DNA of 64,000 bases from Balanoglossus misakiensis (lineage: Eukaryota; Animalia; Hemichordata), in contig CM082582.2 of the NCBI GenBank assembly GCA_040954595.2, positions 9,229,483-9,293,482 of the forward strand, in the 5' to 3' direction. The notes beneath the pieces were generated by a model. The model worked only from the letters and a program-made list of their open reading frames with translations. It ran no database searches and was not told the origin of the DNA. Shown here piece by piece: positions 29,024-62,390 of this stretch. Each line of letters opens with the position of its first letter. Position 1 is the first letter of the stretch. Position numbers and translations under genes: made by a program.

Positions 29024-29042
29024 AAAACCTTGACATGTCTGG
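29024..29042 (+). promoter_or_regulatory. Conserved 19-bp upstream element AAAACCTTGACATGTCTGG (copy 1), 399 bp before the ATG of short gene 1
   Basis: Identical to 60456-60474, upstream of the paralogous short gene, while the surrounding sequence shows little similarity by eye. Confidence 0.6.
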
Positions 29043-29422
29043 ATTTTGGACATTGATTTTGTTTGCTTCTTGATAAACTTTTGGTACATGTGTAACGACG
29101 ATACAGATTTAAAACTACGTTTTCACTCGGCTATGATTGTTGCCGTTTTTATGTAAAAACTTCCAATCTGAGAGATCCGCAACTTGCGGTCAGAGTTTAG
29201 TTTTGCGTAAGTAAGTGCATGCTTACTTGCATTAAGTCTCTGCCAATGAAAATCTCTGTAAGTAATGAAACATTCAAAGTCTGCTAAACGGCCTCAACAA
29301 ATGCATGTTGAGCAATTTGATTTGTGGTTTTCTTTAGTCATATCGGTTCCTCCTCCAGATTACTGATTCGTCTTTTAGAACAAATAATTAACTCTCCGTT
29401 TTTTGTATATATTTCAGACAAA

Positions 29423-29880
29423 ATGAAGCAACAGAAAATATGGTCAGCAATTCTTATCATATGCCTAACATTGATCTGTTGGGTTACCATGGTGACCGGT
29501 GCACCGATCAATTTTCCTGATCCAGGTATGTACAGTGATTTTTACTGAACCTTCGTTTTCAATTTTGCCCCTACTCTGCAATCAACTGCTTTTAGAACCA
29601 GTTCATTTATTCAAGTTCGACTGATTTCAGTCTCAAGGTTTACAGAATTATCACTAGACAGCGTGGCGTCATCTTAAATTCATTACCGCAGCCTACTAAC
29701 AATTTTCCCCTTTCAATTGTCGAAACAGATATCACAATAAGGACGACAAACAACACGTCGTGCGCGGCGTCCGAACCGTACACACTGCACATCACGCCCG
29801 CAGACTGGACACTTCTCATCGTCTACTCGTGCTTCGGCTGCGCCATGTCAAACAGCGTTGCATCGTCGCTCCCTAAGTGA
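29423..29880 (+). CDS. 84-aa putative secreted mini-protein 1, a short derivative of the TPAxWTF membrane-protein family; exons 29423-29525 and 29729-29880
   Basis: Acceptor atttcAG at 29417 precedes the ATG. Exon 1 is MKQQKIWSAILIICLTLICWVTMVTGAPINFPDP, followed by phase-1 G|GTATGT. The acceptor aaacAG at 29728 gives DITIRTTNNTSCAASEPYTLHITPADWTLLIVYSCFGCAMSNSVASSLPK*. AATAAA at 30215. Supported by the collinear paralog at 60823-61313. Confidence 0.78.
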
Positions 29881-30464
29881 CTACTATAAAAGAAAGTTTT
29901 TTTTAATGAGTGTGCTTCTGTCACTGCCGAGGACATGTCTCCAGAGACGGGAATATATCTAGAGAGAGAGAGAGTATGTATGTGTGTACACGAGGCGGCT
30001 GGATCGTCCGTCTTGTAATTGTTGTGATACATGTTGTGCGTCTGCAAGAACGATAAATTATTTATGTACTTTTTTGTAGTAAACGACAAAATGTCTTGTC
30101 TTTTCGAAGTTCAAAAGGCGCCATCACTTCGGATTTAGTAATGTATTGAAGAAATGAATATATATGATGTATATACTATAAATTCCTTCGAATGAGATCA
30201 TTGAATGAACATTTAATAAAGTTTAATACGTATTTTAGAACTAAAGGCTACATCTCTTTGATTGTATACTGTTTGGGGGTTCTTTGCATTGAAGAAAGAG
30301 AAATGGATGATTAGAACGAGATGATAGGGTGGCTCTGAGCTAACCAGCGCCAGTTATGGCGGCCATTTTCATGACTTCCGGAACATGACATCACATCCCT
30401 GTATTTTTGATCGTATGAATCCCCATTTGTATTTACAAATTAAATGTAAGAAACAGCCACTGTA

Positions 30465-33400
30465 TTTTGAAAATTCGCAAAGTCGGAAAACCGTCATTTT
30501 TTGATGATTTTCATGAGCAATAACCCATGATTTTTTTTTAAAAATGAAGAAATTACTGAAATTCGCAAAGTGAAAAAATGACCAAATTTTGAAAATTCGC
30601 AAAGTCGAAAAATCATCATTTTTTGACGATTTTCAGGAGCTATAACCCATGATTTTTTTTCAAAAAATGACCAAATTTCGAAAATTCGCAAAGTCGAAAA
30701 ATCATCATTTTTTGACGATTTTCAGGAGCTATAACCCATGATTTTTTCAAAAAATGACCAAATTTCGAAAATTCGCAAAGTCGAAAAATCGTCATTTTTT
30801 GACGATTTTCATGAGCTATAACCCATGATTTTTTTCATAAAATGACCAAATTTCGAAAATTCGCAAAGTCGAGAAATTGTCATTTTTTGACGATTTTCCT
30901 GAGCTATAACCCATGATTTTTTCAAAAAATGACCAAATTTCGAAAATCCGCAAAGTCGAAAAATCCTCATTTTTTGACGATTTTCCTGAGCTATAACCCA
31001 TGATTTTTTCAAAAAATGACCAAATTTCGAAAATCCGCAAAGTCGAAAAATCCTCATTTTTTGACGATTTTCCTGAGCTATAACCCATGATTTTTTTCAA
31101 AAAATGACCAAATTTCGAAAATCCGCAAAGTCGAAAAATCCTCATTTTTTGACGATTTTCCTGAGCTATAACCCATGATTTTTTCAAAAAATGACCAAAT
31201 TTCGAAAATCCGCAAAGTCGAAAAATCCTCATTTTTTGACGATTTTCCTGAGCTATAACCCATGATTTTTTCAAAAAATGACCAAATTTCGAAAATCCGC
31301 AAAGTCGAAAAATCCTCATTTTTTGACGATTTTCCTGAGCTATAACCCATGTTTTTTTCAAAAAATGACCAAATTTCGAAAATCCGCAAAGTCGAAAAAT
31401 CCTCATTTTTTGACGATTTTCCTGAGCTATAACCCATGATTTTTTCAAAAAATGACCAAATTTCGAAAATCCGCAAAGTCGAAAAATCCTCATTTTTTGA
31501 CGATTTTCCTGAGCTATAACCCATGATTTTTTCAAAAAATGACAAAATTTCGAAAATCCGCAAAGTCGAAAAATCCTCATTTTTTGACGATTTTCCTGAG
31601 CTATAACCAATGATTTTTTCAAAAATGACCAAATTTCGAAAATCCGCAAAGTCGAAAAATCCTCATTTTTTGACGATTTTCCTGAGCTATAACCCATGAT
31701 TTTTTCAAAAAATGACCAAATTTCGAAAATCCGCAAAGTCGAAAAATCCTCATTTTTTGACGATTTTCCTGAGCTATAACCCATGATTTTTTCAAAAAAT
31801 GACCAAATTTCGAAAATCCGCAGAGTCGAAAAATCCTCATTTTTTGACGATTTTCCTGAGCTATAACCCATGATTTTTCAAAAAATGACCAAATTTCGAA
31901 AAATCCGCAAAGTCGAAAAATTGTCATTTCTGGGTGATTTCATGAGCTATAACCCATGGTTTTTCTCAAAAAATCACCAAATTTCGAAAATCCGCAGAGT
32001 CGAAAAATTGTCATTTCTGGGTGATTTCATGAGCTATAACCCATGGTTTTTCTCGAAAAATCACCAAATTTCGAAAATCCGCAAAGTCGAAAAATTGTCA
32101 TTTCTGGGTGATTTCATGAGCTATAACCCATGGTTTTTCTCAAAAAATCACCAAATTTCGAAAATCCGCAGAGTCGAAAAATTGTCATTTCTGGGTGATT
32201 TCATGAGCTATAACCCATGGTTTTTCTCGAAAAATCACCAAATTTCAAAAATCCGCAAAGTCGAAAAATTGTCATTTCTGGGTGATTTCATGAGCTATAA
32301 CCCATGGTTTTTCTCAAAAAATCACCAAATTTCGAAAATCCGCAGAGTCGAAAAATTGTCATTTCTGGGTGATTTCATGAGCTATAACCCATGGTTTTTC
32401 TCGAAAAATCACCAAATTTCAAAAATCCGCAAAGTCGAAAAATTGTCATTTCTGGGTGATTTTCATGAGCTATAACCCATGGTTTTTCTCAAAAAATCAC
32501 CAAATTTCGAAAATCCGCAAAGTCGAAAAATTGTCATTTCTGAGTGATTTCATGAGCTATAACCCATGGTTTTTCTCAAAAAATCACCAAATTTCGAAAA
32601 TCCGCAAAGTCGAAAAATTGTCATTTCTGGGTGATTTCATGAGCTATAACCCATGGTTTTTATCCAAAAACCACCAAATTTTGAAATTTCGCGAAGTCGA
32701 AAAATTGACATTTCTGGATGATTTTCATGAGCTATAACCCATGGTTTTTATCCAAAAACCACCAAATTTTGAAATTTCGCGAAGTCGAAAAATTGACATT
32801 TCTGGATGATTTTCATGAGCTATAACCCATGGTTTTTATCCAAAAACCACCAAATTTTGAAATTTCGCGAAGTCGAAAAATTGACATTTCTGGATGATTT
32901 TCATGAGCTATAACACATGGTTTTTATCCAAAAACCACCAAATTTTGAAATTTCGCGAAGTCGAAAAATTGACATTTCTGGATGATTTTCATGAGCTATA
33001 ACCCATGGTTTTTATCCAAAAACCACCAAATTTTGAAATTTCGCGAAGTCGAAAAATTGACATTTCTGGATGATTTTCATGAGCTATAACCCATGGTTTT
33101 TATCCAAAAACCACCAAATTTTGAAATTTCGCGAAGTCGAAAAATTGACATTTCTGGATGATTTTCATGAGCTATAACCCATGGTTTTTATCCAAAAACC
33201 ACCAAATTTTGAAATTTCGCGAAGTCGAAAAATTGACATTTCTGGATGATTTTCATGAGCTATAACCCATGGTTTTTATCCAAAAACCACCAAATTTTGA
33301 AATTTCGCGATGTCGAAAAATTGACATTTCTGGATGATTTTCATGAGCTATAACCCATGGTTTTTATCCAAAAACCACCAAATTTTGAAATTTCGCGATG

Positions 33401-36400
33401 TCGAAAAATTGACATTTCTGGATGATTTTCATGAGCTATAACCCATGGTTTTTATCCAAAAACCACCAAATTTTGAAATTTCGCGATGTCGAAAAATTGA
33501 TATTTTTGGATGATTTTCATGAGCTATAACACATGGTTTTTTTCCAAAAACCACCAAATTTTGAAATTTCGCGATGTCGAAAAATTGACATTTCTGGATG
33601 ATTTTCATGATCTATAACCCATGGTTTTTATCCAAAAACCACCAAATTTTGAAATTTCGCGAAGTCGAAAAATTGACATTTCTGGATGATTTTCATGAGC
33701 TATAACCCATGGTTTTTATCCAAAAACCACCAAATTTTGAAATTTCACGAAGTCGAAAAATTGACATTTCTGGATGATTTTCATGAGCTATAACCCATGA
33801 TTTTTATCCAAAAACCACCAAATTTTGAAATTTCGCGAAGTCGAAAAATTGACATTTCTGGATGATTTTCATGAGCTATAACCCATGGTTTTTATCCAAA
33901 AACCACCAAATTTTGAAATTTCGCGAAGTCGAAAAATTGACATTTCTGGATGATTTTCATGAGCTATAACCCATGGTTTTTATCCGAAAACCACCAAATT
34001 TTGAAATTTCGCGAAGTCGAAAAATTGACATTTCTGGATGATTTTCATGAGCTATAACCCATGGTTTTTATCCAAATACCACCAAATTTTGAAATTTCGC
34101 GAAGTCGAAAAATTGACATTTCTGGATGATTTTCATGAGCTATAACCCATGGTTTTTATCCGAAAACCACCAAATTTTGAAAATTCGCGAAGTCGAAAAA
34201 TTGACATTTCTGGATGATTTTCATGAGCTATAACCCATGGTTTTTATCCAAAAACCACCAAATTTTGAAATTTCGCGAAATCGAAAAATTGACATTTCTG
34301 GATGATTTTCATGAGCTATAACCCATGGTTTTTATCCAAAAACCACTAAATTTTGAAATTTCGAGAAGTCGATAAATTAACATTTCTGGATGATTTTCAT
34401 TAGCTATAACCCATGGTTTTTATCCAAAAACCACCAAATTTTGAAATTTCGCGAAGTCGAAAAATTGACATTTCTGGATGATTTTCATGAGCTATAACCC
34501 ATGGTTTTTATCCAAAAACCACCAAATTTTGAAATTTCGCGAAGTCGAAAAATTGACATTTCTGGATGATTTTCATGAGCTATAACCCATGGTTTTTATC
34601 CAAAAACCACCAAATTTTGAAATTTCGCGAAGTCGAAAAATTGACATTTCTGGATGATTTTCATGAGCTATAACCCATGGTTTTTATCCAAAAACCACCA
34701 AATTTTGAAATTTCGCGATGTCGAAAAATTGACATTTCTGGATGATTTTCATGAGCTATAACCCATGGTTTTTATCCAAAAACCACCAAATTTTGAAATT
34801 TCGCGATGTCGAAAAATTGATATTTTTGGATGATTTTCATGAGCTATAACACATGGTTTTTTTCCAAAAACCACCAAATTTTGAAATTTCGCGATGTCGA
34901 AAAATTGACATTTCTGGATGATTTTCATGATCTATAACCCATGGTTTTTATCCAAAAACCACCAAATTTTGAAATTTCGCGAAGTCGAAAAATTGACATT
35001 TCTGGATGATTTTCATAAGCTATAACCCATGGTTTTTATCCAAAAACCACCAAATTTTGAAATTTCACGAAGTCGAAAAATTGACATTTCTGGATGATTT
35101 TCATGAGCTATAACCCATGATTTTTATCCAAAAACCACCAAATTTTGAAATTTCGCGAAGTCGAAAAATTGACATTTCTGGATGATTTTCATGAGCTATA
35201 ACCCATGGTTTTTATCCAAAAACCACCAAATTTTGAAATTTCGCGAAGTCGAAAAATTGACATTTCTGGATGATTTTCATGAGCTATAACCCATGGTTTT
35301 TATCCGAAAACCACCAAATTTTGAAATTTCGCGAAGTCGAAAAATTGACATTTCTGGATGATTTTCATGAGCTATAACCCATGGTTTTTATCCAAATACC
35401 ACCAAATTTTGAAATTTCGCGAAGTCGAAAAATTGACATTTCTGGATGAATTTCATGAGCTATAACCCATGGTTTTTATCCGAAAACCACCAAATTTTGA
35501 AAATTCGCGAAGTCGAAAAATTGACATTTCTGGATGATTTTCATGAGCTATAACCCATGGTTTTTATCCAAAAACCACCAAATTTTGAAATTTCGCGAAG
35601 TCGAAAAATTGACATTTCTGGATGATTTTCATGAGCTATAACCCATGGTTTTTATCCAAAAACGACCAAATTTTGAAATTTCGCGAAGTCGAAAAATTGA
35701 CATTTCTGGATGATTTTCATGAGCTATAACCCATGGTTTTTATCCAAAAACCACCAAATTTTGAAATTTCGCGATGTCGAAAAATTGACATTTCTGGATG
35801 ATTTTCATGAGCTATAACCCACGGTTTTTATCCAAAAACTACCAAATTTTGAAATTTCGCGATGTCGAAAAATTGACATTTCTGGATGATTTTCATGAGC
35901 TATAACCCATGGTTTTTATCCGAAAACCACCAGATTATGAAATTTCGCGAAGTCGAAAAATTGACATTTCTGGATGATTTTCATGAGCTATAACCCATGG
36001 TTTTTATCCGAAAACCACCAAATTTTGAAATTTCGCTAAGTCGAAAAATTGACATTTCTGGATGATTTTCATGAGCTATAACCCATGGTTTTTATCCAAA
36101 AACCACCAAATTTTGAAAATTCGCGAAATCGAAAAATTGACATTTCTGGATGATTTTCATGAGCTATAACCCATGGTTTTTATCCAAAAACCACCAAATT
36201 TTGAAATTTCGAGAAGTCGAAAAATTGACATTTCTGGATGATTTTCATGAGCTATAACCCATGGTTTTTATCCAAAAACCACCAAATTTTGAAATTTCGC
36301 GAAGTCGAAAAATTGACATTTCTGGATGATTTTCATGAGCTATAACCCATGGTTTTTATCCGAAAACCACCAAATTTTGAAATTTCGCGAAGTCGAAAAA

Positions 36401-39400
36401 TTGACATTTCTGGATGATTTTCATGAGCTATAACCCATGGTTTTTATCCAAAAACCACCAAATTTTGAAATTTCGCGATGTCGAAAAATTTACATTTCTG
36501 GATGATTTTCATGAGCTATAACCCATGGTTTTTATCCAAAAACCACCAAATTTTGAAATTTCGCGAAGTCGAAAAATTGACATTTCTGGATGATTTTCAT
36601 GAGCTATAACCCATGGTTTTTATCCAAAAACCACCAAATTTTGAAATTTCGCGAAGTCGAAAAATTGACATTTCTGGATGATTTTCATGAGCTATAACCC
36701 ATGGTTTTTATCCAAAAACCACCAAATTTTGAAATTTCGCGAAGTCGAAAAATTGACATTTCTGGATGATTTTCATGAGCTATAACCCATGGTTTTTATC
36801 CGAAAACCACCAGATTATGAAATTTCGCGAAGTCGAAAAATTGACATTTCTGGATGATTTTCATGAGCTATAACCCATGGTTTTTATCCGAAAACCACCA
36901 AATTTTGAAATTTCGCTAAGTCGAAAAATTGACATTTCTGGATGATTTTCATGAGCTATAACCCATGGTTTTTATCCAAAAACCACCAAATTTTGAAAAT
37001 TCGCGAAATCGAAAAATTGACATTTCTGGATGATTTTCATGAGCTATAACCCATGGTTTTTATCCAAAAACCACCAAATTTTGAAATTTCGAGAAGTCGA
37101 AAAATTGACATTTCTGGATGATTTTCATGAGCTATAACCCATGGTTTTTATCCAAAAACCACCAAATTTTGAAATTTCGCGAAGTCGAAAAATTGACATT
37201 TCTGGATGATTTTCATGAGCTATAACCCATGGTTTTTATCCGAAAACGACCAAATTTTGAAATTTCGCGAAGTCGAAAAATTGACATTTCTGGATGATTT
37301 TCATGAGCTATAACCCATGGTTTTTATCCAAAAACCACCAAATTTTGAAATTTCGCGATGTCGAAAAATTTACATTTCTGGATGATTTTCATGAGCTATA
37401 ACCCATGGTTTTTATCCAAAAACCACCAAATTTTGAAATTTCGCGAAGTCGAAAAATTGACATTTCTGGATGATTTTCATGAGCTATAACCCATGGTTTT
37501 TATCCAAAAACCACCAAATTTTGAAATTTCGCGAAGTCGAAAAATTGACATTTCTGGATGATTTTCATGAGCTATAACCCATGGTTTTTATCCAAAAACC
37601 ACCAAATTTTGAAATTTCGCGAAATCGAAAAATTGACATTTCTGGATGATTTTCATGAGTTATAACCCATGGTTTTTATCCAAAAACCACCAAATTTTGA
37701 AATTTCGAGAAGTCGAAAAATTTACATTTCTGGATGATTTTCATGAGCTATAACCCATGATTTTTATCCAAAAACCACCAAATTTTGAAATTTCGCGAAG
37801 TCGAAAAATTGACATTTCTGGATGATTTTCATGAGCTATAACACATGGTTTTTTTCCAAAAACCACCAAATTTTGAAATTTCGCGATGTCGAAAAATTGA
37901 CATTTCTGGATGATTTTCATGATCTATAACCCATGGTTTTTATCCAAAAACCACCAAATTTTGAAATTTCGCGAAGTCGAAAAATTGACATTTCTGGATG
38001 ATTTTCATGAGCTATAACCCATGGTTTTTATCCAAAAACCACCAAATTTTGAAATTTCACGAAGTCGAAAAATTGACATTTCTGGATGATTTTCATGAGC
38101 TATAACCCATGATTTTTATCCAAAAACCACCAAATTTTGAAATTTCGCGAAGTCGAAAAATTGACATTTCTGGATGATTTTCATGAGCTATAACCCATGG
38201 TTTTTATCCAAAAACCACCAAATTTTGAAATTTCGCGAAGTCGAAAAATTGACATTTCTGGATGATTTTCATGAGCTATAACCCATGGTTTTTATCCGAA
38301 AACCACCAAATTTTGAAATTTCGCGAAGTCGAAAAATTGACATTTCTGGATGATTTTCATGAGCTATAACCCATGGTTTTTATCCGAAAACCACCAAATT
38401 TTGAAAATTCGCGAAGTCGAAAAATTGACATTTCTGGATGATTTTCATGAGCTATAACCCATGGTTTTTATCCAAAAACCACCAAATTTTGAAATTTCGC
38501 GAAGTCGAAAAATTGACATTTCTGGATGATTTTCATGAGCTATAACCCATGGTTTTTATCCAAAAACGACCAAATTTTGAAATTTCGCGAAGTCGAAAAA
38601 TTGACATTTCTGGATGATTTTCATGAGCTATAACCCATGGTTTTTATCCAAAAACCACCAAATTTTGAAATTTCGCGATGTCGAAAAATTGACATTTCTG
38701 GATGATTTTCATGAGCTATAACCCATGGTTTTTATCCAAAAACCACCAAATTTTGAAATTTCGCGATGTCGAAAAATTGACATTTTTGGATGATTTTCAT
38801 GAGCTATAACACATGGTTTTTTTCCAAAAACCACCAAATTTTGAAATTTCGCGATGTCGAAAAATTGACATTTCTGGATGATTTTCATGATCTATAACCC
38901 ATGGTTTTTATCCAAAAACCACCAAATTTTGAAATTTCGCGAAGTCGAAAAATTGACATTTCTGGATGATTTTCATGAGCTATAACCCATGGTTTTTATC
39001 CAAAAACCACCAAATTTTGAAATTTCACGAAGTCGAAAAATTGACATTTCTGGATGATTTTCATGAGCTATAACCCATGATTTTTATCCAAAAACCACCA
39101 AATTTTGAAATTTCGCGAAGTCGAAAAATTGACATTTCTGGATGATTTTCATGAGCTATAACCCATGGTTTTTATCCAAAAACCACCAAATTTTGAAATT
39201 TCGCGAAGTCGAAAAATTGACATTTCTGGATGATTTTCATGAGCAATAACCCATGGTTTTTATCCGAAAACCACCAAATTTTGAAATTTCGCGAAGTCGA
39301 AAAATTGACATTTCTGGATGATTTTCATGAGCTATAACCCATGGTTTTTATCCAAAAACCACCAAATTTTGAAATTTCGCGAAGTCGAAAAATTGACATT

Positions 39401-42400
39401 TCTGGATGATTTTCATGAGCTATAACCCATGGTTTTTATCCGAAAACCACCAAATTTTGAAAATTCGCGAAGTCGAAAAATTGACATTTCTGGATGATTT
39501 TCATGAGCTATAACCCATGGTTTTTATCCAAAAACCACCAAATTTTGAAATTTCGCGAAGTCGAAAAATTGACATTTCTGGATGATTTTCATGAGTTATA
39601 ACCCATGGTTTTTATCCAAAAACCACCAAATTTTGAAATTTCGAGAAGTCGAAAAATTTACATTTCTGGATGATTTTCATGAGCTATAACCCATGATTTT
39701 TATCCAAAAACCACCAAATTTTGAAATTTCGCGAAGTCGAAAAATTTACATTTCTGGATGATTTTCATGAGCTATAACCCATGGTTTTTATCCGAAAACC
39801 ACCAGATTTTGAAATTTCGCGAAATCGAAAAATTGACATTTCTGGATGATTTTCATGAGCTATAACCCATGGTTTTTATCCAAACACCACCAAATTTTGA
39901 AATTTCGCGAAGTCGAAAAATTGACATTTCTGGATGATTTTCATGAGCTATAACCCATGGTTTTTATCCAAAAACCACCAAATTTTTTAAATTTCGCGAA
40001 GTCGAAAAATTGACATTTCTGGATGATTTTCATGAGCTATAACCCATGGTTTTTATCCAAAAACCACCAAATTTTGAAATTTCGAGAAGTCGAAAAATTT
40101 ACATTTCTGGATGATTTTCATGAGCTATAACCCATGATTTTTATCCAAAAACCACCAAAATTTAAAATTTCGCGAAGTCGAAAAATTGACATTTCTGGAT
40201 GATTTTCATGAGCTATAACCCATGGTTTTTATCCAAAAACCACCAAATTTTGAAATTTCGCGAAGTCGAAAAATTGACATTTCTGGATGATTTTCATGAG
40301 CTATAACCCATGGTTTTTATCCGAAAACCATCAAATTTTGAAATTTCGCGAAGTCGAAAAATTGACATTTCTGGATGATTTTCATGAGCTATAACCCATG
40401 GTTTTTATCCAAAAACCACCAAATTTTGAAATTTCGCGATGTCGAAAAATTTACATTTCTGGATGATTTTCATGAGCTATAACCCATGGTTTTTATCCAA
40501 AAACCACCAAATTTTGAAATTTCGCGAAGTCGAAAAATTGACATTTCTGGATGATTTTCATAAGCTATAACCCATGGTTTTTATCCGAAAACCACCAAAT
40601 TTTAAAAATTCGCGAAGTCGAAAAATTGACATTTCTGGATGATTTTCATGAGCTATAACCCATGGTTTTTATCCGAAAACCACCAAATTTTGAAATTTCG
40701 CGAAGTCGAAAAATTGACATTTCTGGATGATTTTCATGAGCTATAACCCATGGTTTTTATCCGAAAACCACCAAATTTTGAAATTTCGCGAAGTCGAAAA
40801 ATTGACATTTCTGGATGATTTTCATAAGCTATAACCCTTGGTTTTTATCCGAAAACAACCAAATTTTAAAAATTCGCGAAGTCGAAAAATTGACATTTCT
40901 GGATGATTTTCATGAGCTATAACCCATGGTTTTTATCCGAAAACCACCAAATTTTGAAATTTCGCTAAGTCGAAAAATTGACATTTCTGGATGATTTTCA
41001 TGAACTATAACCCATGGTTTTTATCCAAAAACCACCAAATTTTGAAAATTCGCGAAATCGAAAAATTGACATTTCTGGATGATTTTCATGAGCTATAACC
41101 CATGGTTTTTATCCAAAAACCACCAAATTTTGAAATTTCGAGAAGTCGAAAAATTGACATTTCTGGATGATTTTCATGAGCTATAACCCATGGTTTTTAT
41201 CCAAAAACCACCAAATTTTGAAATTTCGCGAAGTCGAAAAATTGACATTTCTGGATGATTTTCATGAGCTATAACCCATGGTTTTTATCCGAAAACCACC
41301 AAATTTTGAAATTTCGCGAAGTCGAAAAATTGACATTTCTGGATGATTTTCATGAGCTATAACCCATGGTTTTTATCCAAAAACCACCAAATTTTGAAAT
41401 TTCGCGAAGTCGAAAAATTGACATTTCTGGATGATTTTCATGAGCTATAACCCATGGTTTTTATCCAAAAACCACCAAATTTTGAAATTTCGCGAAGTCG
41501 AAAAATTGACATTTCTGGATGATTTTCATGAGCTATAACCCATGGTTTTTATCCAAAAACCACCAAATTTTGAAATTTCGCGAAGTCGAAAAATTGACAT
41601 TTCTGGATGATTTTCATGAGCTATAACCCATGGTTTTTATCCAAAAACCACCAAATTTTGAAATTTCGCGAAATCGAAAAATTGACATTTCTGGATGATT
41701 TTCATGAGTTATAACCCATGGTTTTTATCCAAAAACCACCAAATTTTGAAATTTCGAGAAGTCGAAAAATTTACATTTCTGGATGATTTTCATGAGCTAT
41801 AACCCATGATTTTTATCCAAAAACCACCAAATTTTGAAATTTCGCGAAGTCGAAAAATTTACATTTCTGGATGATTTTCATGAGCTATAACCCATGGTTT
41901 TTATCCGAAAACCACCAGATTTTGAAATTTCGCGAAATCGAAAAATTGACATTTCTGGATGATTTTCATGAGCTATAACCCATGGTTTTTATCCAAACAC
42001 CACCAAATTTTGAAATTTCGCGAAGTCGAAAAATTGACATTTCTGGATGATTTTCATGAGCTATAACCCATGGTTTTTATCAAAAAACCACCAAATTTTT
42101 TAAATTTCGCGAAGTCGAAAAATTGACATTTCTGGATGATTTTCATGAGCTATAACCCATGGTTTTTATCCAAAAACCACCAAATTTTGAAATTTCGAGA
42201 AGTCGAAAAATTTACATTTCTGGATGATTTTCATGAGCTATAACCCATGATTTTTATCCAAAAACCACCAAAATTTAAAATTTCGCGAAGTCGAAAAATT
42301 GACATTTCTGGATGATTTTCATGAGCTATAACCCATGGTTTTTATCCAAAAACCACCAAATTTTGAAATTTCGCGAAGTCGAAAAATTGACATTTCTGGA

Positions 42401-50100: not shown

Positions 50101-53100
50101 TTCGCGAAATTTCAAAATTTGGTGGTTTTTGGATAAAAACCATGGGTTATAGCTCATGAAAATCATCCAGAAATGTCAATTTTTCGACTTAGCGAAATTT
50201 CAAAATTTGGTGGTTTTTGGATAAAAACCATGGGTTATAGCTCATGAAAATCATCCAGAAATGTCAATTTTTCGACTTCGCGAAATTTCAAAATTTGGTG
50301 GTTTTTGGATAAAAACCATGGGTTATAGCTCATGAAAATCATCCAGAAATGTCAATTTTTCGACTTCGCGAAATTTCAAAATTTGGTGGTTTTTGGATAA
50401 AAACCATGGGTTATAGCTCATGAAAATCATCCAGAAATGTCAATTTTTCGACTTCGCGAAATTTCAAAATTTGGTGGTTTTTGGATAAAAACCATGGGTT
50501 ATAGCTCATGAAAATCATCCAGAAATGTCAATTTTTCGACTTCGCGAAATTTCAAAATTTGGTGGTTTTTGGATAAAAACCATGGGTTATAGCTCATGAA
50601 AATCATCCAGAAATGTCAATTTTTCGACTTCGCGAAATTTCAAAATTTGGTGGTGTTTGGATAAAAACCATGGGTTATAGCTCATGAAAATCATCCAGAA
50701 ATGTCAATTTTTCGACTTCGCGAAATTTCAAAATTTGGTGGTTTTTGGATAAAAACCATGGGTTATAGCTCATGAAAATCATCCAGAAATGTCAATTTTT
50801 CGACTTCGCGAAATTTCAAAATTTGGTGGTTTTTGGATAAAAACCATGGGTTATAGCTCATGAAAATCATCCAGAAATGTCAATTTTTCGACTTCGCGAA
50901 ATTTCAAAATTTGGTGGTTTTTGGATAAAAACCATGGGTTATAGCTCATGAAAATCATCCAGAAATGTCAATTTTTCGACTTCGCGAAATTTCAAAATTT
51001 GGTGGTTTTTGGATAAAAACCATGGGTTATAGCTCATGAAAATCATCCAGAAATGTCAATTTTTCGACTTCGCGAAATTTCAAAATTTGGTGGTTTTTGG
51101 ATAAAAACCATGGGTTATAGCTCATGAAAATCATCCAGAAATGTCAATTTTTCGACTTCGCGAAATTTCAAAATTTGGTGGTTTTTGGATAAAAACCATG
51201 GGTTATAGCTCATGAAAATCATCCAGAAATGTCAATTTTTCGACTTCGCGAAATTTCAAAATTTGGTGGTTTTTGGATAAAAACCATGGGTTATAGCTCA
51301 TGAAAATCATCCAGAAATGTCAATTTTTCGACTTCGCGAAATTTCAAAATTTGGTGGTTTTTGGATAAAAATCATGGGTTATAGCTCATGAAAATCATCC
51401 AGAAATGTCAATTTTTCGACTTCGCGAAATTTCAAAATTTGGTGGTTTTTGGATAAAAACCATGGGTTATAGCTCATGAAAATCATCCAGAAATGTCAAT
51501 TTTTCGACTTCGCGAAATTTCATAATTTGGTGGTTTTTGGATAAAAACCATGGGTTATAGCTCATGAAAATCATCCAGAAATGTCAATTTTTCGACTTTG
51601 CTGATTTTCGAAATTTGGTGATTTTTTGAGAAAATCCATGGGTTATAGCTCATGAAAATCACCGAGAAATGACAATGTTTCGACTTTGCGGATTTTCGAA
51701 ATTTGGTGATTTTTTGAGAAAAACCATGGGTTATAGCTCATGAAAATCACCCAGAAATGACAATTTTTCGACTTCGCGGATTTTTGAAATTTGGTGGTTT
51801 TTGGATAAAAACCATGGGTTATAGCTCATGAAAATCATCCAGAAATGTCAATTTTTCGACTTCGCGAAATTTCAAAATTTGGTGGTTTTTGGATAAAAAC
51901 CATGGGTTATAGCTTATGAAAATCATCCAGAAATGTCAATTTTTCGACTTCGCGAAATTTCAAAATTTGGTGGTTTTTGGATAAAAACCATGGGTTATAG
52001 CTCATGAAAATCATCCAGAAATGTCAATTTTTCGACTTCGCGAAATTTCAAAATTTGGTGGTTTTCGGATAAAAACCATGGGTTATAGCTCATGAAAATC
52101 ATCCAGAAATGTCAATTTTTCGACTTCGCGAAATTTCAAAATTTGGTGGTTTTTGGATAAAAACCATGGGTTATAGCTCATGAAAATCATCCAGAAATGT
52201 CAATTTTTCGACTTCGCGAAATTTCAAAATTTGGTGGTTTTTGGATAAAAATCATGGGTTATAGCTCATGAAAATCATCCAGAAATGTCAATTTTTCGAC
52301 TTCGCGAAATTTCAAAATTTGGTGGTTTTTGGATAAAAACCATGGGTTATAGCTCATGAAAATCATCCAGAAATGTCAATTTTTCGACTTCGCGAAATTT
52401 CAAAATTTGGTGGTTTTTGGATAAAAACCATGGGTTATAGCTCATGAAAATCATCCAGAAATGTCAATTTTTCGACTTCGCGAAATTTCAAAATTTGGTG
52501 GTTTTTGGATAAAAACCATGGGTTATAGCTCATGAAAATCATCCAGAAATGTCAATTTTTCGACTTCGCGAAATTTCAAAATTTGGTGGTTTTTGGATAA
52601 AAACCATGGGTTATAGCTCATGAAAATCATCCAGAAATGTCAATTTTTCGACTTCGCGAAATTTCAAAATTTGGTGGTTTTTGGATAAAAACCATGGGTT
52701 ATAGCTCATGAAAATCATCCAGAAATGTCAATTTTTCGACTTCGCGAAATTTCAAAATTTGGTGGTTTTTGGATAAAAACCATGGGTTATAGCTCATGAA
52801 AATCATCCAGAAATGTCAATTTTTCGACTTCGCGAAATTTCAAAATTTGGTGGTTTTTGGATAAAAACCATGGGTTATAGCTCATGAAAATCATCCAGAA
52901 ATGTCAATTTTTCGACTTCGCGAAATTTCAAAATTTGGTGGTTTTTGGATAAAAACCATGGGTTATAGCTCATGAAAATCATCCAGAAATGTCAATTTTT
53001 CGACTTCGCGAAATTTCAAAATTTGGTGGTTTTTGGATAAAAACCATGGGTTATAGCTCATGAAAATCATCCAGAAATGTCAATTTTTCGACTTCGCGAA

Positions 53101-56100
53101 ATTTCATAATTTGGTGGTTTTTGGATAAAAACCATGGGTTATAGCTCATGAAAATCATCCAGAAATGTCAATTTTTCGACTTTGCTGATTTTCGAAATTT
53201 GGTGATTTTTTGAGAAAATCCATGGGTTATAGCTCATGAAAATCACCGAGAAATGACAATGTTTCGACTTTGCGGATTTTCGAAATTTGGTGATTTTTTG
53301 AGAAAAACCATGGGTTATAGCTCATGAAAATCACCCAGAAATGACAATTTTTCGACTTCGCGGATTTTTGAAATTTGGTGGTTTTTGGATAAAAACCATG
53401 GGTTATAGCTCATGAAAATCATCCAGAAATGTCAATTTTTCGACTTCGCGAAATTTCAAAATTTGGTGGTTTTTGGATAAAAACCATGGGTTATAGCTTA
53501 TGAAAATCATCCAGAAATGTCAATTTTTCGACTTCGCGAAATTTCAAAATTTGGTGGTTTTTGGATAAAAACCATGGGTTATAGCTCATGAAAATCATCC
53601 AGAAATGTCAATTTTTCGACTTCGCGAAATTTCAAAATTTGGTGGTTTTCGGATAAAAACCATGGGTTATAGCTCATGAAAATCATCCAGAAATGTCAAT
53701 TTTTCGACTTCGCGAAATTTCAAAATTTGGTGGTTTTTGGATAAAAACCATGGGTTATAGCTCATGAAAATCATCCAGAAATGTCAATTTTTCGACTTCG
53801 CGAAATTTCAAAATTTGGTGGTTTTTGGATAAAAATCATGGGTTATAGCTCATGAAAATCATCCAGAAATGTCAATTTTTCGACTTCGCGAAATTTCAAA
53901 ATTTGGTGGTTTTTGGATAAAAACCATGGGTTATAGCTCATGAAAATCATCCAGAAATGTCAATTTTTCGACTTCGCGAAATTTCAAAATTTGGTGGTTT
54001 TTGGATAAAAACCATGGGTTATAGCTCATGAAAATCATCCAGAAATGTCAATTTTTCGACTTCGCGAAATTTCAAAATTTGGTGGTTTTTGGATAAAAAC
54101 CATGGGTTATAGCTCATGAAAATCATCCAGAAATGTCAATTTTTCGACTTCGCGAAATTTCAAAATTTGGTGGTTTTTGGATAAAAACCATGGGTTATAG
54201 CTCATGAAAATCATCCAGAAATGTCAATTTTTCGACTTCGCGAAATTTCATAATTTGGTGGTTTTTGGATAAAAACCATGGGTTATAGCTCATGAAAATC
54301 ATCCAGAAATGTCAATTTTTCGACTTTGCTGATTTTCGAAATTTGGTGATTTTTTGAGAAAATCCATGGGTTATAGCTCATGAAAATCACCGAGAAATGA
54401 CAATGTTTCGACTTTGCGGATTTTCGAAATTTGGTGATTTTTTGAGAAAAACCATGGGTTATAGCTCATGAAAATCACCCAGAAATGACAATTTTTCGAC
54501 TTCGCGGATTTTTGAAATTTGGTGGTTTTTGGATAAAAACCATGGGTTATAGCTCATGAAAATCATCCAGAAATGTCAATTTTTCGACTTCGCGAAATTT
54601 CAAAATTTGGTGGTTTTTGGATAAAAACCATGGGTTATAGCTCATGAAAATCATCCAGAAATGTCAATTTTTCGACTTCGCGAAATTTCAAAATTTGGTG
54701 GTTTTTGGATAAAAACAATGGGTTATAGCTCATGAAAATCATCCAGAAATGTCAATTTTTCGACTTCGCGAAATTTCAAAATTTGGTGGTTTTTGGATAA
54801 AAACCATGGGTTATAGCACATGAAAATCATCTAGAAATGTCAATTTTTCGACTTCGCGAAATTTCAAAATTTGGTGGTTTTTGGATAAAAACCATGGGTT
54901 ATAGCTCATGAAAATCATCCAGAAACGTCAATTTTTCGACTTCGCGAAATTTCAAAATTTGGTGGTTTTTGGATAAAAACCATGGGTTATAGCTCATGAA
55001 AGTCATCCAGAAATGTCAATTTTTCGACTTCGCGAAATTGCAAAATTTGGTGGTTTTTGGATAAAAACCATGGGTTATAGCTCATGAAAGTCATCCAGAA
55101 ATGTCAATTTTTCGACTTCGCGAAATTTCAAAATTTGGTGGTTTTTGGATAAAAACCATGGGTTATAGCTCATGAAAGTCATCCAGAAATGTCAATTTTT
55201 CGACTTCGCGAAATTTCAAAATTTGGTGGTTTTTGGATAAAAACCATGGGTTATAGCTCATGAAAGTCATCCAGAAATGTCAATTTTTCGACTTCGCGAA
55301 ATTTCAAAATTTGGTGGTTTTTGGATAAAAACCATGGGTTATAGCTCATGAAAATCATCCAGAAATGTCAATTTTTCGACTTCGCGAAATTTCAAAATTT
55401 GGTGGTTTTTGGATAAAAACCATGGGTTATAGCTCATGAAAATCATCCAGAAATGTCAATTTTTCGACTTCGCGAAATTTCAAAATTTGGTGGTGTTTGG
55501 ATAAAAACCATGGGTTATAGCTCATGAAAATCATCCAGAAATGTCAATTTTTCGACTTCGCGAAATTTCAAAATTTGGTGGTTTTTGGATAAAAACCATG
55601 GGTTATAGCTCATGAAAATCATCCAGAAATGTCAATTTTTCGACTTCGCGAAATTTCAAAATTTGGTGGTTTTTGGATAAAAACCATGGGTTATAGCTCA
55701 TGAAAATCATCCAGAAATGTCAATTTTTCGACTTCGCGAAATTTCAAAATTTGGTGGTTTTTGGATAAAAACCATGGGTTATAGCTCATGAAAATCATCC
55801 AGAAATGTCAATTTTTCGACTTCGCGAAATTTCAAAATTTGGTGGTTTTTGGATAAAAACCATGGGTTATAGCTCATGAAAATCATCCAGAAATGTCAAT
55901 TTTTCGACTTCGCGAAATTTCAAAATTTGGTGGTTTTTGGATAAAAACCATGGGTTATAGCTCATGAAAATCATCCAGAAATGTCAATTTTTCGACTTCG
56001 CGAAATTTCAAAATTTGGTGGTTTTTGGATAAAAACCATGGGTTATAGCTCATGAAAATCATCCAGAAATGTCAATTTTTCGACTTCGCGAAATTTCAAA

Positions 56101-58916
56101 ATTTGGTGGTTTTTGGATAAAACCATGGGTTATAGCTCATGAAAATCATCCAGAAATATCAATTTTTCGACTTCGCGAAATTTCAAAAATTTGGTGGTTT
56201 TTGGATAAAAACCATGGGTTATAGCTCATGAAAATCATCCAGAAATGTCAATTTTTCGACTTCGCGAAATTTCAAAATTTGGTGGTTTTTGGATAAAAAC
56301 CATGGGTTATAGCTAATGAAAATCATCCAGAAATGTCAATTTTTCGACTTCGCGAAATTTCAAAATTTGGTGGTTTTTGGATAAAAACCATGGGTTATAG
56401 CTCATGAAAATCATCCAGAAATGTCAATTTTTCGACTTCGCGAAATTTCAAAATTTGGTGGTTTTTGGATAAAAACCATGGGTTATAGCTCATGAAAATC
56501 ATCCAGAAATGTCAATTTTTCGACTTCGCGAAATTTCAAAATTTGGTGGTTTTTGGATAAAAACCATGGGTTATAGCTCATGAAAATCATCCAGAAATGT
56601 CAATTTTTCGACTTCGCGAAATTTCAAAATTTGGTGGTTTTTGGATAAAACCATGGGTTATAGCTCATGAAAATCATCCAGAAATATCAATTTTTCGACT
56701 TCGCGAAATTTCAAAAATTTGGTGGTTTTTGGATAAAAACCATGGGTTATAGCTCATGAAAATCATCCAGAAATGTCAATTTTTCGACTTCGCGAAATTT
56801 CAAAATTTGGTGGTTTTTGGATAAAAACCATGGGTTATAGCTAATGAAAATCATCCAGAAATGTCAATTTTTCGACTTCGCGAAATTTCAAAATTTGGTG
56901 GTTTTTGGATAAAAACCATGGGTTATAGCTCATGAAAATCATCCAGAAATGTCAATTTTTCGACTTCGCGAAATTTCAAAATTTGGTGGTTTTTGGATAA
57001 AAACCATGGGTTATAGCTCATGAAATCACTCAAAAATGACAATTTTTTGACTTTGCTGATTTTCGAAATTTGGTGAATTTTTGAGAAAAACCATGGGTTA
57101 TAGCTCATGAAAATCACCAAGAAATGACAATTTTACGACTTTGCGGATTTTCAAAATTTGGTGATTTTTTGAGAAAAACCATGGGTTATAGCTCATGAAA
57201 ATCACCCAGAAATGAAAATTTTTCGACTTTGCGGATTTTTGAAATTTGGTGATTTTTTGAGAAAAACCATGGGTTATAGATCATGAAATCACCCAGAAAT
57301 GACAATTTTTCGACTTTGCGGATTTCCGAAATTTGGTGATTTTTTGAGAAAAACCATGGGTTATAGATCATGAAATCACTCAGAAATGACAATTTTTCGA
57401 CTTTGCTGATTTTCGAAATTTGGTGATTTTTTGAGAAAAACCATGGGTTATAGCTCATGAAAATCACCCAGAAATGACAATTTTTCGACTTTGCGGATTT
57501 TCAAAATTTGGTGATTTTTTGAGAAAAACCATGGGTTATAGCTCATGAAATCACTCAGAAATGACAATTTTTCGACTTTGCGGATTTTCGAAATTTGGTG
57601 ATTTTTTGAGAAAAAACATGGGTTATAGCTCATGAAAATCACCCAGAAATGACAATTTTTCGACTTTGCGGATTTTTGAAATTTGGTGATTTTTCGAGAA
57701 AAACCATGGGTTATAGCTCATGAAATCACCCAGAAATGACAATTTTTCGACTTTGCGGATTTTCGAAATTTGGTCATTTTTTGAAAAAATCATGGGTTAT
57801 AGCTCATGAAAATCGTCAAAAAATGAGGATTTTTCGACTTTGCGGATTTTCGAAATTTGGTCATTTTTTGAAAAAAAACATGGGTTATAGCTCAGGAAAA
57901 TCGTCAAAAAATGAAGATTTTTCGACTTTGCGGATTTTCGAAATTTAGTCATTTTTTAAAAAAATCATGGGTTATAGCTCAGGAAAATCGTCAAAAAAGA
58001 GGATTTTTCGACTTTGCGGATTTTCGAAATTTGGTCATTTTTTGAAAAAATCGTGGGTTATAGCTCAGGAAAATCGTCAAAAAATGAGGATTTTTCGACT
58101 TTGCGGATTTTCGAAATTTGGTCATTTTTTGAAAAAACCATGGGTTATAGCTCAGGAAAATCGTCAAAAAATGAGGATTTTTCGACTTTGCGGATTTTCG
58201 AAATTTGGTCATTTTTTGAAAAAATCATGGGTTATAGCTCAGGAAAATCGTCAAAAAATGAGGATTTTTCGACTTTGCGGATTTTCGAAATTTGGTCATT
58301 TTTTGAAAAAATCATGGGTTATAGCTCAGGAAAATCGTCAAAAAATGAGGATTTTTCGACTTTGCGGATTTTCGAAATTTGGTCATTTTTTGAAAAAATC
58401 ATGGGTTATAGCTCAGGAAAATCGTCAAAAAATGAGGATTTTTCGACTTTGCGGATTTTCGAAATTTGGTCATTTTTTGAAAAAAACCATGGGTTATAGC
58501 TCAGGAAAATCGTCAAAAAATGACGATTTTTCGACTTTGCGAATTTTCGAAATTTGGTCATTTTTTGAAAAAATCATGGGTTATAGCTCATGAAAATCGT
58601 CAAAAAATGAGCATTTTTCGACTTTGCGGATTTTTGAAATTTGGTCATTTTTTGAAAAAACCATGGGTTATAGCTCAGGAAAATCGTCAAAAAATGAGCA
58701 TTTTTCGACTTTGTGGCTTTTCGAAATTTGGTCATTTTTTGAAAAAATCATGGGTTATAGCTCAGGAAAATCGTCAAAAAATGAGGATTTTTCAACTTTG
58801 CGGATTTTCGAAATTTGGTCATCTTTTGAAAAAATCATGGGTTATAGCCCAGGAAAATCGTCAAGAAATGAGGATTTTTCGACTTTGTGGATTTTCGAAA
58901 TTTGGTCATTTTTTGA
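44105..58916 (-). repeat. Satellite array, right arm (about 168 units), reverse complement of the left-arm monomer
   Basis: The monomer reads AAATTTCAAAATTTGGTGGTTTTTGGATAAAAACCATGGGTTATAGCTCATGAAAATCATCCAGAAATGTCAATTTTTCGACTTCGCG. Zones: C' ~44105-57020; B' ~57020-57770; A' ~57770-58916. Confidence 0.97.
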
Positions 58917-60455
58917 TATCTTCTCGACCTCGATGTTATTAACAATCGGGTTTATACTGCTGAATGGACGATATCTGATTGAGACACGCCAGACTCGCAA
59001 TCGTGTCCGTTGCGATATCTGCGGTGTCGTTTATTATCTGGTAAATTGAGTTGGTCGCAAGATGACAGCGAATAAACAACTTGAAGCGCAATCGTGGTTG
59101 GTGTGTTGGTTTATTGCGTTAGAGGTCGGTGAACTCGATCGAAATGTTTAGTAGTACATGTAGTCCCGTAGAATCATGCAGTCTGCATGGGCCACCAAAG
59201 CTCTTAGCAGTTTGAAGTCAATGGCTCGACATTCCCTCTGCTGTTGGGCGCAGTAATGGACAACGGTAGAACAAGGGGTGGTCATTAGTAACTATACGCC
59301 TCCTTCAGGAATTTTAAGAGTGTAATAGCTCTAACCTCAGGAGCAAGGATGTTGAGCTATTTAGAGCACGGACCCTGGGACTGTTGATGATAGAATAAGG
59401 TCTTATATCTGACCGACAGTGCAGTAAAGTCATTGTCACCTTAAGCTTTTATTATATTGTGAGGTCCGTGTGGTGTAGATGAAGATGACCCTTGTTCAAT
59501 AAAGGAGGTGAGGGGGACAAGTTGTCTACCTGCAAGAGAAAGTGGACGAGGCTGCATCTATCCTCAAAAGCCACCCAACTTTTGTGTCAGTGTGGTTAGT
59601 TTTTCCATAGACCTTATTGCTCCCAGGGTCTGTGTTTTTTTTTTATGTGTCCAAGGTGATCTCGACGCCAAACCATCACCGATAAAAATTCCCGATCGTG
59701 CCGACTTGCTGAGCGAGCGATATCAGAAGGAGACAAACCGCGCCGGAGCCGCAATTGTTCAACAGTGACCATTTAACGATGTCTGTCGTATCGTCAGTTA
59801 CCTTGACTTGAAGTGGCAACAAGCAAAGCATAAAAATCGTTCAATGCAAACCATGTGTACCAGAACAGAAAGTGCTTTTAGGCTCCTTCTGCGTCCGAGG
59901 TCGTTTTTGCTTGGGCATGTTGTACTTGGCCAACCTTGGCAGATTGAATTCTCCCACCGATTATTACCGCCAATTCTTCGATTCGATGATCAATTTAAAA
60001 TCACAGCTGTACAGCCCTGCCCCTTTCAACGTAAAATGAAAACCGGTAAAGACAGGTATCACTGAAATGTGTGTACACGTTCTGTTTACAATATTGTAAA
60101 GTGTTTCTTGTTGACTCAGTTTATGTTCGCTGTGTCGACCAGGTGACTGTGTACCACATTTGGGCGAAACATTAATTCCAATCACTTTCAGGTAAAGGCG
60201 CAAATTAACCAGCCAAAGTTATTTTTGCCTGATTGTTCGTCGCAGTAAATACATAACCGATTTTTTTTTCTCATTGCAATTGCTCGTATATTTCTTCGTT
60301 GCCATACAATTAGAGGGACGTTCGCCCGGTATGCAGATGTTTGTAAACACACCCAATCACCAAGTTCACAAAAAAATTGTGTGCCCTTGTATCGTTCACA
60401 AGACAAATCACATTAGAGATCCGGGTCATTCAACTGTTTTCGGTTATCTCCGCTC

Positions 60456-60474
60456 AAAACCTTGACATGTCTGG
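60456..60474 (+). promoter_or_regulatory. Conserved 19-bp upstream element AAAACCTTGACATGTCTGG (copy 2), 367 bp before the ATG of short gene 2
   Basis: Identical to 29024-29042, in the same orientation and at a similar distance from the start codon. Confidence 0.6.
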
Positions 60475-60822
60475 TTTTGTAAATCGATACCGACCAATGC
60501 TTGGCAACTGATGTGTATATCACTTCTGTGCACACGACGAGTTTGACAACAACGCCAGAATGATTTCAGATCCCTGTCAGAGGACTACGTAGTATCCGGA
60601 CGTGCCTGGACATATCACACACACACGCCTAAAACTATTCCAGCGCGACGGTTTGCCTAGTTGTGACGAGTTGGTCTCTACCTTTATTGTTCAGGTAAAG
60701 TTAAATATTTTTCTTGAGAAAATCAAACGTATTTAACTACATTTATACGTGTAAGTAGAACATTACATTGGAGAGAGGAGTGTGTAATACAGGTTTGTCT
60801 CTTGTTATTCGCAGGCAAAATC

Positions 60823-61313
60823 ATGGTACTTCTAACAGGAAAGTCATGGGTTGCTGTTCTCTGGTGTATGCTGGCATTTCTGTTTAACGTGGTATTCAGC
60901 GCACCCATAGATTTGGCTGAACCAGGTAATGAAAAGCAGGGTGGATTCGAAAGAAATCGTCGTGTTTTTTTGCTCAAATTTCCGAAGCAAGATTTTGTTA
61001 GTATATGAGCTAAAAGAGTTTCACCATGGTCACAAATGACTGTGAGTTCCTAGTCGGTCCAAAGGACTTGAACCTACACGTTTTAAAGACACCGTACAAA
61101 ATGAAAAGGTAGATATTTGAAAAAACAACGCAAATATTTATCCACTTTTACTTTTTTGCAGAGCAAGGTTTATTCATCAACGCCACTTGTGACGCGGCTG
61201 AGAGATACACGCTCCGGGTTACTCAGGCCGATTGGACATTCATCGTGATGTATTCCTGCTTTGGCTACACTCTTTCGGAGACTGCGCATAAAGAAGTCTT
61301 CCAGGCGATCTGA
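60823..61313 (+). CDS. 84-aa putative secreted mini-protein 2, paralog of 29423-29880; exons 60823-60925 and 61162-61313
   Basis: Acceptor ttcgcAG at 60814 (candidate UTR donor CAG|GTAAAG at 60695). Exon 1 is MVLLTGKSWVAVLWCMLAFLFNVVFSAPIDLAEP, followed by phase-1 G|GTAATG. The acceptor cttttttgcAG at 61161 gives EQGLFINATCDAAERYTLRVTQADWTFIVMYSCFGYTLSETAHKEVFQAI*. AATAAA at 61466. Confidence 0.8.
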
Positions 61314-62390
61314 CGTCCTCACAACCCGAATTAGTACCGAGGATTTTTGCGGGTTGGCTTGTGTGTTGCCCGCTGTTTCCGGCTCGCAACGGTCTTGGTG
61401 AAGAGATACGAGATGTTTTGATGAACGTGACATTATATTAGTGAAAGGATAAGACACTTGTGAATAATAAATATTTTCCATCTGATCCAATGAATTTCAA
61501 ACGAAGATTTCAACTTTTATGACCGTACATCGATGCCGGACATTGGTGGCGAAGGTAAAATTGGTGGGAAAAATTCAACACTGACGAGGTCCCTCCTTTT
61601 CGGAACAGGGATTACATGATGTCATACTTATAAGCAGAAGTGAAAAAATAATACCTGGAAAACGTGATATCCGTAGACTGAGACAGAAACAACAGCTCGC
61701 ATTACCAAGAATAGATATTGATAAGATGCGTATAATGATGATGGTTTTTAAATTTGTTAATATCCGCTACTGTAGATATATCCTGTCGTTATTGTCGAGA
61801 ATAAAGAATTATTCACTACTGACGTGCTGTGCGTTTCACTGAAAGATTTTCTTCGACAGCATGTGATTTGCTGCAGTGTGAAGGTTTCGACCGCGTGGGG
61901 GCGCTCTAGCACCCTGTTGCCACTGGTGACATGCTAAACAACATCCTTTCGCACCTTCAATCGCAAAAAAAACAGATTTGAGTCGTTTGAAATTATTTTA
62001 TTTCGTATAAGTTGTATCAAAAAGTGACATAACAACAGAATAATACATCCACACATATGAATGGTTGTGAACTGTACATGGTCTGGTTCCCCTGCATCAG
62101 GGTTTTAAGAATGATTTTAAAAACTCTAAGGGTTAAAATGCGGACAGTAGCTGTAATTTTGACATGTCTCCAGCATTTACATTTTGTGGTTCAATGTATG
62201 TTGGAAAACATGTAGAATTCGGTTTGTTGGGCAGGTATCTTTGTGTACAGCTGAATGATTAACTGGGCACTTTGGTATTCGCTTCGCAGAATGAACAGTG
62301 GTGGTTGTAGCACAAAACAAAACTGAAGACAAAAAAAGCCAAACTCACAGCTACTGCCCCTTCTATTGTCTTGCAGACTAAATTTCGCTT

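Follow-up and report, generated by a model that had tools for sequence, protein, structure and literature searches.

Two intact 84-codon genes in Balanoglossus misakiensis derived by partial duplication of a polytopic membrane-protein gene

A 64,000-nucleotide stretch of the genome of the hemichordate Balanoglossus misakiensis (GenBank assembly GCA_040954595.2, contig CM082582.2, positions 9,229,483 to 9,293,482 of the forward strand; hereafter the window) carries two small genes, g1 and g2, together with four full-length paralogs (A–D) of a polytopic membrane-protein family. g1 and g2 are real, intact and long-selected genes with a clear and unusual origin, forming one clade that arose by partial duplication of paralog D. 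We report their structure, their origin, the derived changes they share and the selection that has acted on them, and from these we infer a product and a function. The reading towards which we lean is that, after this duplication and under purifying selection, they encode mini-proteins of about 58 residues that are secreted and glycosylated, likely closed by a disulfide and likely with a new role or partner.

Results

Gene structure of g1 and g2

In each gene the open reading frame (ORF) crosses a single phase-1 intron with GT-AG borders, and splicing at the predicted sites gives a protein of 84 amino acids, as the initial annotation of this DNA had proposed. The ATG, splice sites, frame and stop are all intact in both. 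The two proteins are 38% identical over 73 residues and both contain the N-glycosylation sequon, the cysteine spacing C-x22-C and the motif YSCFG that had been noted initially. Their equal length had also been counted as evidence; it is the product of offsetting gaps and drops out of the argument. The proposed family-wide exon layout stands in part: a phase-1 intron follows the first transmembrane segment (TM1) in six of six family genes, whereas the 103-nt first coding exon of g1 and g2 is shared only with D (A 100, B 109, C 100, D 103 nt). Likewise, a pyrimidine-rich tract followed by AG lies 5–35 nt before the ATG in all six genes (5 nt in D and g1, 8 nt in g2), which suggests a non-coding first exon common to the six.

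With 84 residues and one strong hydrophobic segment, neither protein is a five-helix bundle. Since the evidence here is genomic sequence only, exon 2 might splice on to further exons and yield longer products, for example full membrane proteins. We regard this as very improbable. Exon 2 of neither gene contains a GT-R-AG donor (weak GT-R sites only), an AATAAA follows each stop, and g2 is bounded downstream, at about 1.1 kb, by a short-chain dehydrogenase gene in convergent orientation. Moreover, a six-frame search of the whole window with a hidden Markov model (HMM) of the family found no TM3–8 segment besides those of the four paralogs, and no such remnants near g1 or g2, in agreement with the earlier statement that the remaining helices are absent.

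Descent from paralog D

The family HMM, built from 25 homologues from outside the window, scored 25.2 bits for g2 and 20.1 bits for g1 over family positions 1–62. The mature parts alone scored 17.9 (g2) and 12.0 bits (g1) against shuffle maxima of 8.1 and 7.9 (5000 shuffles each). Trees built on the N-terminal segment place g1 and g2 as sisters (support 100/98 with 31 rows and 98/98 with 18 of those rows), and the 18-row tree joins them to the D lineage with support 97/96. With the same 18 rows, placement with C, A or B was rejected (p 0.024–0.038 in the approximately unbiased, AU, test). The suggested origin from the N-terminus of the family is thus supported by HMM scores above all shuffles and by the trees. 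Branching before and after the Glandiceps orthologue were not distinguished (p-AU 0.25); the exact branching place is unsure because the branches are long.

Compared with D, both genes have Gly or Ser in place of Asn26 and Pro in place of Leu28 where TM1 ends, cysteines at D's Gly44 (GGC) and Trp70 (TGG), each Cys codon being one base away, and an early stop 15–17 codons past the second cysteine. A shared three-codon deletion that removes Trp64 of TM2 appears in the HMM, local and genafpair alignments. Trp64 is absent from both proteins in every alignment and Trp182, the invariant Trp of TM5, lies beyond their stop; Trp64 is itself invariant in 25 of 25 outside homologues. Because g1 and g2 share these derived changes, the truncation happened once, before the two genes split. 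A 12-codon deletion, which would tie the second cysteine to a Cys at the end of TM2 in D, was rejected, since the HMM and two of three alignments favour the three-codon gap. Loop 1 had been thought to be the only part kept; it is indeed retained, and the parent model and the alignments show that a remodelled TM2 is retained as well.

The parent family

Exon 2 of paralog D is 84% identical to the Ptychodera flava RefSeq protein XP_070574999.1, with which the splice model of D agrees in length (317 aa) and across the junction. A homologue search gave 27 matches, the named ones being from deuterostomes, molluscs and one bryozoan and mostly labelled 'uncharacterized'; coelacanth homologues are labelled si:ch211-161h7.5 or si:dkey-29d8.3. 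The predicted structure of the P. flava orthologue (predicted local distance difference test, pLDDT, 89) has eight long helices, with TM1 at residues 6–29, a short loop helix at 43–49 and TM2 at 58–83. In this model loop 1, of about 28 residues, contains only that short helix and forms no autonomous ectodomain.

The results suggest an uncharacterised eight-helix membrane family whose first five helices resemble TSPO. Residues 7–197 of the P. flava orthologue match BcTSPO (4RYI) with Z 11.3 and a root-mean-square deviation of 4.0 over 148 of 151 residues; this is the best fold match and lies below the value of about 13 that the tool requires for helical bundles. One homologue (P0004) passes the Pfam TspO_MBR (PF03073) cut-off, with 25.1 against 24 bits. 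In all, three of 29 members match that profile at E<=0.1, and one of eight proteins scanned singly is above the cut-off. Foldseek on the parent-family model returned nothing significant (E 3.2) and sequence searches of the PDB gave 0 matches.

In line with the extracellular side proposed initially, loop 1 is likely luminal, because the sequon occurs in 22 of 25 homologues and because loops 2 and 4 and the C-terminus contain more Lys and Arg than do loops 3 and 5, a positive-inside pattern. The parent paralogs appear to have a TSPO-like core with three extra helices, and their loop 1, luminal by sequon and charge, would be on the opposite side to LP1 of BcTSPO. We take the family's Trp64 to be Trp51 of BcTSPO, going by motifs and not by a residue alignment. 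The BcTSPO loop LP1 is called intracellular in PMC10598825.

The genes cry5, cry-dash, soul5, ddb2 and per2 are presumably light-induced. Zebrafish si:ch211-161h7.5 goes up (+4.03 log2) along with these five in an expression table (PMC11589825, Table 2), the only mention of it found in the literature searched; this is a hint that links the parent family to light or porphyrin stress. A literature search whose coverage is short on subscription journals and without supplements found no description of g1 or g2 or of the family's function.

Selection and a shared upstream element

Over 80 codons, the proportions of synonymous and nonsynonymous differences between g1 and g2 (pS and pN) are 0.74 and 0.42, synonymous sites being saturated. 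The ungapped 30-codon core, picked after the alignment had been seen, unlike the whole-gene test, gave 0.91 and 0.23. Identical residues with degenerate codons use differing codons in 18 of 26 cases, and blastn found no coding similarity between the genes, the longest exact match in exon 2 being 7 bases. A codon model was compared with a ratio of nonsynonymous to synonymous rates (dN/dS) of 1, with p=1.6e-5 when the gene is taken whole, p=1.4e-6 for its mature part and p=0.9 for residues 1–26; point estimates reached the distance bound, so that only these tests are usable. Neutrality is thereby rejected for the whole gene and the mature part, which bears out the purifying selection proposed initially. 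Furthermore, codon use in exon 2 is like that of the paralogs (the g1 value is attained in 0 of 5000 null draws; in g2 the signal is weaker, p=0.004).

A 19-bp element is identical upstream of both genes and likely belongs to their promoters. With <=3 mismatches allowed, the window contains two copies where 0.03 would be expected. Because the pattern was chosen from the data, the fairer control is a comparison of 561 pairs of 1-kb blocks, in which no match was longer, the next (16 and 15) being between coding paralogs. It was not found at paralogs A–D at <=3 mismatches, and it may be a dispersed repeat. The element is an imperfect palindrome around GACATGTC. We take one of its strands to resemble a p53-family half-site and the opposite strand one of NR5A/ERR type. 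Two candidates were discarded: a p53 full site upstream of g1, a single match with 3 mismatches that is about chance by estimate, and D-boxes, of which five occur in about 35 kb, one upstream of g1 and none at g2. Rfam gave 0 matches in window positions 25000–31000.

Truncated pseudogenes, or once-selected genes that have recently died, would fit the truncation, the long branches, the lack of annotation in relatives and the weak codon bias of g2. This we consider quite improbable, given the rejection of dN/dS=1, the intact ATG, splice sites, frame and stop in both genes, and the unchanged 19-bp element amid introns and 3' flanks that share <=7 bases. A simulated neutral copy, under substitutions only, rarely stayed intact (0.2% of trials at 0.5 substitutions per site, 2.9% at 0.25). 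The saturated synonymous sites, the rejected neutrality and the identical upstream element together indicate long-selected genes and not decaying fragments.

Predicted processing of residues 1–26

Signal peptides have a cationic-hydrophobic-polar layout with an h-region of 7–15 residues (PMC8745461). Residues 1–26 of both mini-proteins show that layout. Relative to the predicted cleavage site, both have Val at −3, Gly or Ser at −1 and Pro at +2. Family position 26 is Asn, Ser or Thr in 24 of 25 homologues, and Pro28 is absent among the residues listed for that column. In residues 1–26, D agrees with one of its two orthologues at 24/26 positions and with the other at 20/26; conserved in the D lineage and unconstrained in the mini-proteins, they have lost constraint only in the latter, as for a signal peptide. 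Cleavage and secretion are therefore plausible, on sequence features.

An uncleaved TM1 would instead make these single-pass type II membrane mini-proteins, with a cysteine-closed domain in the lumen or on the cell surface. Such an anchor would suit the strong hydrophobicity of TM1 (Kyte–Doolittle 2.47 in g1, 2.12 in g2), its derivation from a signal anchor, and the length of the g1 hydrophobic run, at the long end of the published h-region range (PMC8745461). We consider it rather unlikely, as the small −3/−1 residues and the Pro at +2 are present in both mini-proteins and lacking in the parents, and residues 1–26 have dN/dS near 1 while residues 27–30 (AP-I-N/D) are kept. The sequon and the cysteine pair would make sense in the lumen of the endoplasmic reticulum (ER) with or without cleavage.

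The mature chain

Hydrophobicity scales for membrane spanning were applied to the second segment, whose best 19-residue Kyte–Doolittle mean is 1.30 in g1, 0.77 in g2 and 1.90 in D. The TM2 remnant thus appears too polar to span the membrane in g2 and marginal in g1. A disulfide between the two new cysteines is plausible. In the parent model Gly44 lies in the loop helix and Trp70 in the middle of TM2, so that a bond between these positions would need a different fold. AlphaFold on the two exon 2 sequences placed strands at 17–23 and 27–34 where the parent has loop and helix (pLDDT 50), possibly a beta-hairpin, which we treat only as a lead; a fold search with this model gave a meaningless best Z of 3.3. 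Besides the conserved pair, g1 has a third cysteine in its mature part (Cys72), where g2 has Tyr, and it could serve as a dimer link or for lipidation.

Neuropeptide precursors are marked by dibasic cleavage sites or a Gly-Lys/Arg amidation signal. No KR, RR, KK, RK or G-K/R occurs in either mature sequence. A glycosylphosphatidylinositol (GPI) anchor was discarded, the C-termini being polar.

The initial annotation also suggested that the products might act as ligands, decoys or regulators of the full-length proteins. As microProtein-like regulators they would bind the paralogs by competing with their loop 1. The mini-genes lie close to their parents and have retained the loop-1 motif, loop 1 of BcTSPO is packed against loop 3 and required for the binding of porphyrin according to PMC10598825, and truncated paralogs as competitors are discussed for receptor-like kinases with leucine-rich repeats (LRR-RLKs; PMC7318236). 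Nonetheless we judge such regulators unlikely: the invariant Trp64 is deleted, the conserved Gly44 and Trp70 have become cysteines that only a different fold could join, linkage is expected from tandem duplication alone, and the 19-bp element is common to no parent at <=3 mismatches. None of the results favours a ligand, decoy or regulator role.

Genomic surroundings

Features of the window are collected in Table 1. The two arms of the 88-bp satellite, of about 154 and about 168 copies, meet at 44105. They do not mirror each other, having 10 of 94 unit variants in common and giving no alignment at 98% identity, but their outer ends carry the same divergent unit type. We take the satellite to resemble a foldback-type element. 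Removal of the satellite would leave about 2.5 kb between g1 and g2.

Table 1. Positions of g1, g2, their full-length paralogs and associated elements within the window.
Feature	Position	Strand	Remarks
g1 exon 1	29423..29525	+	103 nt; predicted signal peptide (residues 1–26) and start of mature chain; homologous to TM1 of paralog D
g1 intron	29526..29728	+	203 nt, GT-AG, phase 1; phase and place as in paralogs A–D; predicted from sequence
g1 exon 2	29729..29880	+	sequons N42/N43, Cys46, Cys69, Cys72, TGA stop
g2 exon 1	60823..60925	+	103 nt; predicted signal peptide (residues 1–26)
g2 intron	60926..61161	+	236 nt, GT-AG, phase 1
g2 exon 2	61162..61313	+	sequon N41, Cys44, Cys67, TGA stop
19-bp element, copy 1	29024..29042	+	399 nt upstream of g1 ATG; identical to g2 copy; likely promoter element
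19-bp element, copy 2	60456..60474	+	367 nt upstream of g2 ATG
Pyrimidine tract and AG	29395..29417	+	ends 5 nt before g1 ATG; likely acceptor of a 5' untranslated region (UTR) intron, as in D (inferred)
Pyrimidine tract and AG	60792..60814	+	ends 8 nt before g2 ATG; likely 5' UTR intron acceptor (inferred)
First AATAAA after g1	30215..30220	+	candidate poly(A) signal
First AATAAA after g2	61466..61471	+	candidate poly(A) signal
Paralog A	8653..9744	-	301 aa
Paralog B	12896..14128	-	332 aa
Paralog C	20921..22105	+	314 aa
Paralog D	23227..24761	+	317 aa; full-length lineage from which g1 and g2 derive
88-bp satellite, two inverted arms	30464..58918		between g1 and g2; not part of the genes

A single ORF at 17313–18026 (− strand), located between B and C, has a Frizzled cysteine-rich domain (Pfam Fz, 5.9e-32) as its sole domain besides a predicted signal peptide, and is possibly a secreted Wnt-binding protein. 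Other neighbours are a glycosyltransferase 61 gene (3554–5404, +), which we take to be POMGNT2-like, a Speriolin_C protein (6542–8251, +), the short-chain dehydrogenase (62394–63920, −), presumably DHRS1-like, and an exon at 2350–2832 (−) without a Pfam match that we assume to be VAT-1-like.

Discussion

On the favoured reading, that of secreted mini-proteins, the old first helix would target the chain to the ER and be cut after residue 26, because of the changes Asn26 to Gly/Ser and Leu28 to Pro. A 58-residue mature chain would then enter the ER lumen, where its sequon would be glycosylated and the two new cysteines would pair. The shortened, polar TM2 would no longer insert, and the remnant together with loop 1 would for this reason refold, possibly as the beta-hairpin of the low-confidence model. 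The product would leave the cell and meet a partner different from the parent's ligand. With the invariant Trp of TM2 deleted and TM2 more polar, a new role is favoured over mimicry of the parent.

A more far-reaching version is possible, though we consider it less likely than not: a new secreted family may have arisen from inside a polytopic membrane protein, TM1 becoming a signal peptide and loop 1 with half of the TM2 helix a disulfide-closed beta-hairpin, by a few point changes and a three-codon deletion.

Several results weigh against secretion of a closed, refolded chain from active genes. TM1 of g1 is long and hydrophobic enough for an uncleaved anchor, and the second segment of g1 about equals TM2 of paralog A in hydrophobicity (1.36). 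The third cysteine of g1 is odd, and the mini-protein model has a pLDDT of 50. A global alignment shows no three-codon gap. Exon 1 of g1 and g2 is without the codon bias of the paralogs (GC content at third codon positions 0.44 and 0.41), and the bias of g2 is weak. Pairwise dN/dS, moreover, reflects past selection and says nothing on present activity.

Orthologues of the mini-proteins are lacking too. Searches of protein collections with the two exon 2 sequences, without exon 1, found none, including no candidate at 26–86 aa, and none of 19 candidates at 87–2000 aa was an orthologue. Of 1.84 billion representatives one matched, a bacterial-type repeat protein of 711 aa, and was rejected as chance; the one match in 102 metagenome stretches, which lay antisense to a bacterial ORF of 374 aa, was also rejected. 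Pfam and NCBIfam hold no family for either exon 2, and the ESM Atlas yielded no usable match to exon 2 of g2, which carries no weight. This absence is weak evidence, because short genes often go unannotated. Given the saturated synonymous distance, copies are expected in relatives, including P. flava, where lack of annotation is the simplest, unproven, cause of the missing orthologue.

As for significance, the mini-genes exemplify a class of small genes that protein collections overlook. Because the parent gene adjoins and the shared changes are few and mapped, both the origin of a secreted protein and the possible helix-to-strand switch are directly testable; if the switch is true, it is a natural one, and the surviving parent allows its steps to be reconstructed and tested. 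The case concerns a single lineage of a single uncharacterised family.

With the si:ch211-161h7.5/si:dkey-29d8.3-like family, g1 and g2 share sequence from TM1 through loop 1 into the beginning of TM2, the phase and position of the intron and the luminal sequon; they differ in lacking six of eight helices, Trp64 and Trp182, and in two cysteines absent from the family. Relative to TSPO/TspO-MBR, they correspond to TM1-LP1-TM2 and have no pocket, while three additional helices and a luminal loop 1, predicted to be glycosylated, distinguish the parents.

MicroProteins and truncated LRR-RLK paralogs are likewise small truncated paralogs overlooked by gene searches (PMC7318236), but microProteins retain the interaction domain of the parent unaltered, whereas here the segment is remodelled. 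As in truncated secreted paralogs, g1 and g2 are duplicates that lost the membrane-spanning remainder and are under selection. The truncated integrin beta-1 paralogs of zebrafish are described as similarly C-terminally truncated, without transmembrane parts, changed at a functional site and re-duplicated in tandem, yet they retain part of a soluble ectodomain and their own signal peptide (PMC1538996). Truncated paralogs without membrane parts are thus known already, and such soluble paralogs normally reuse an ectodomain that already folds. What would be unusual here is that no ready soluble domain was reused: since a folded ectodomain is lacking in the parent, the mini-proteins would have acquired both their signal peptide and their soluble fold anew, from membrane-helix sequence.

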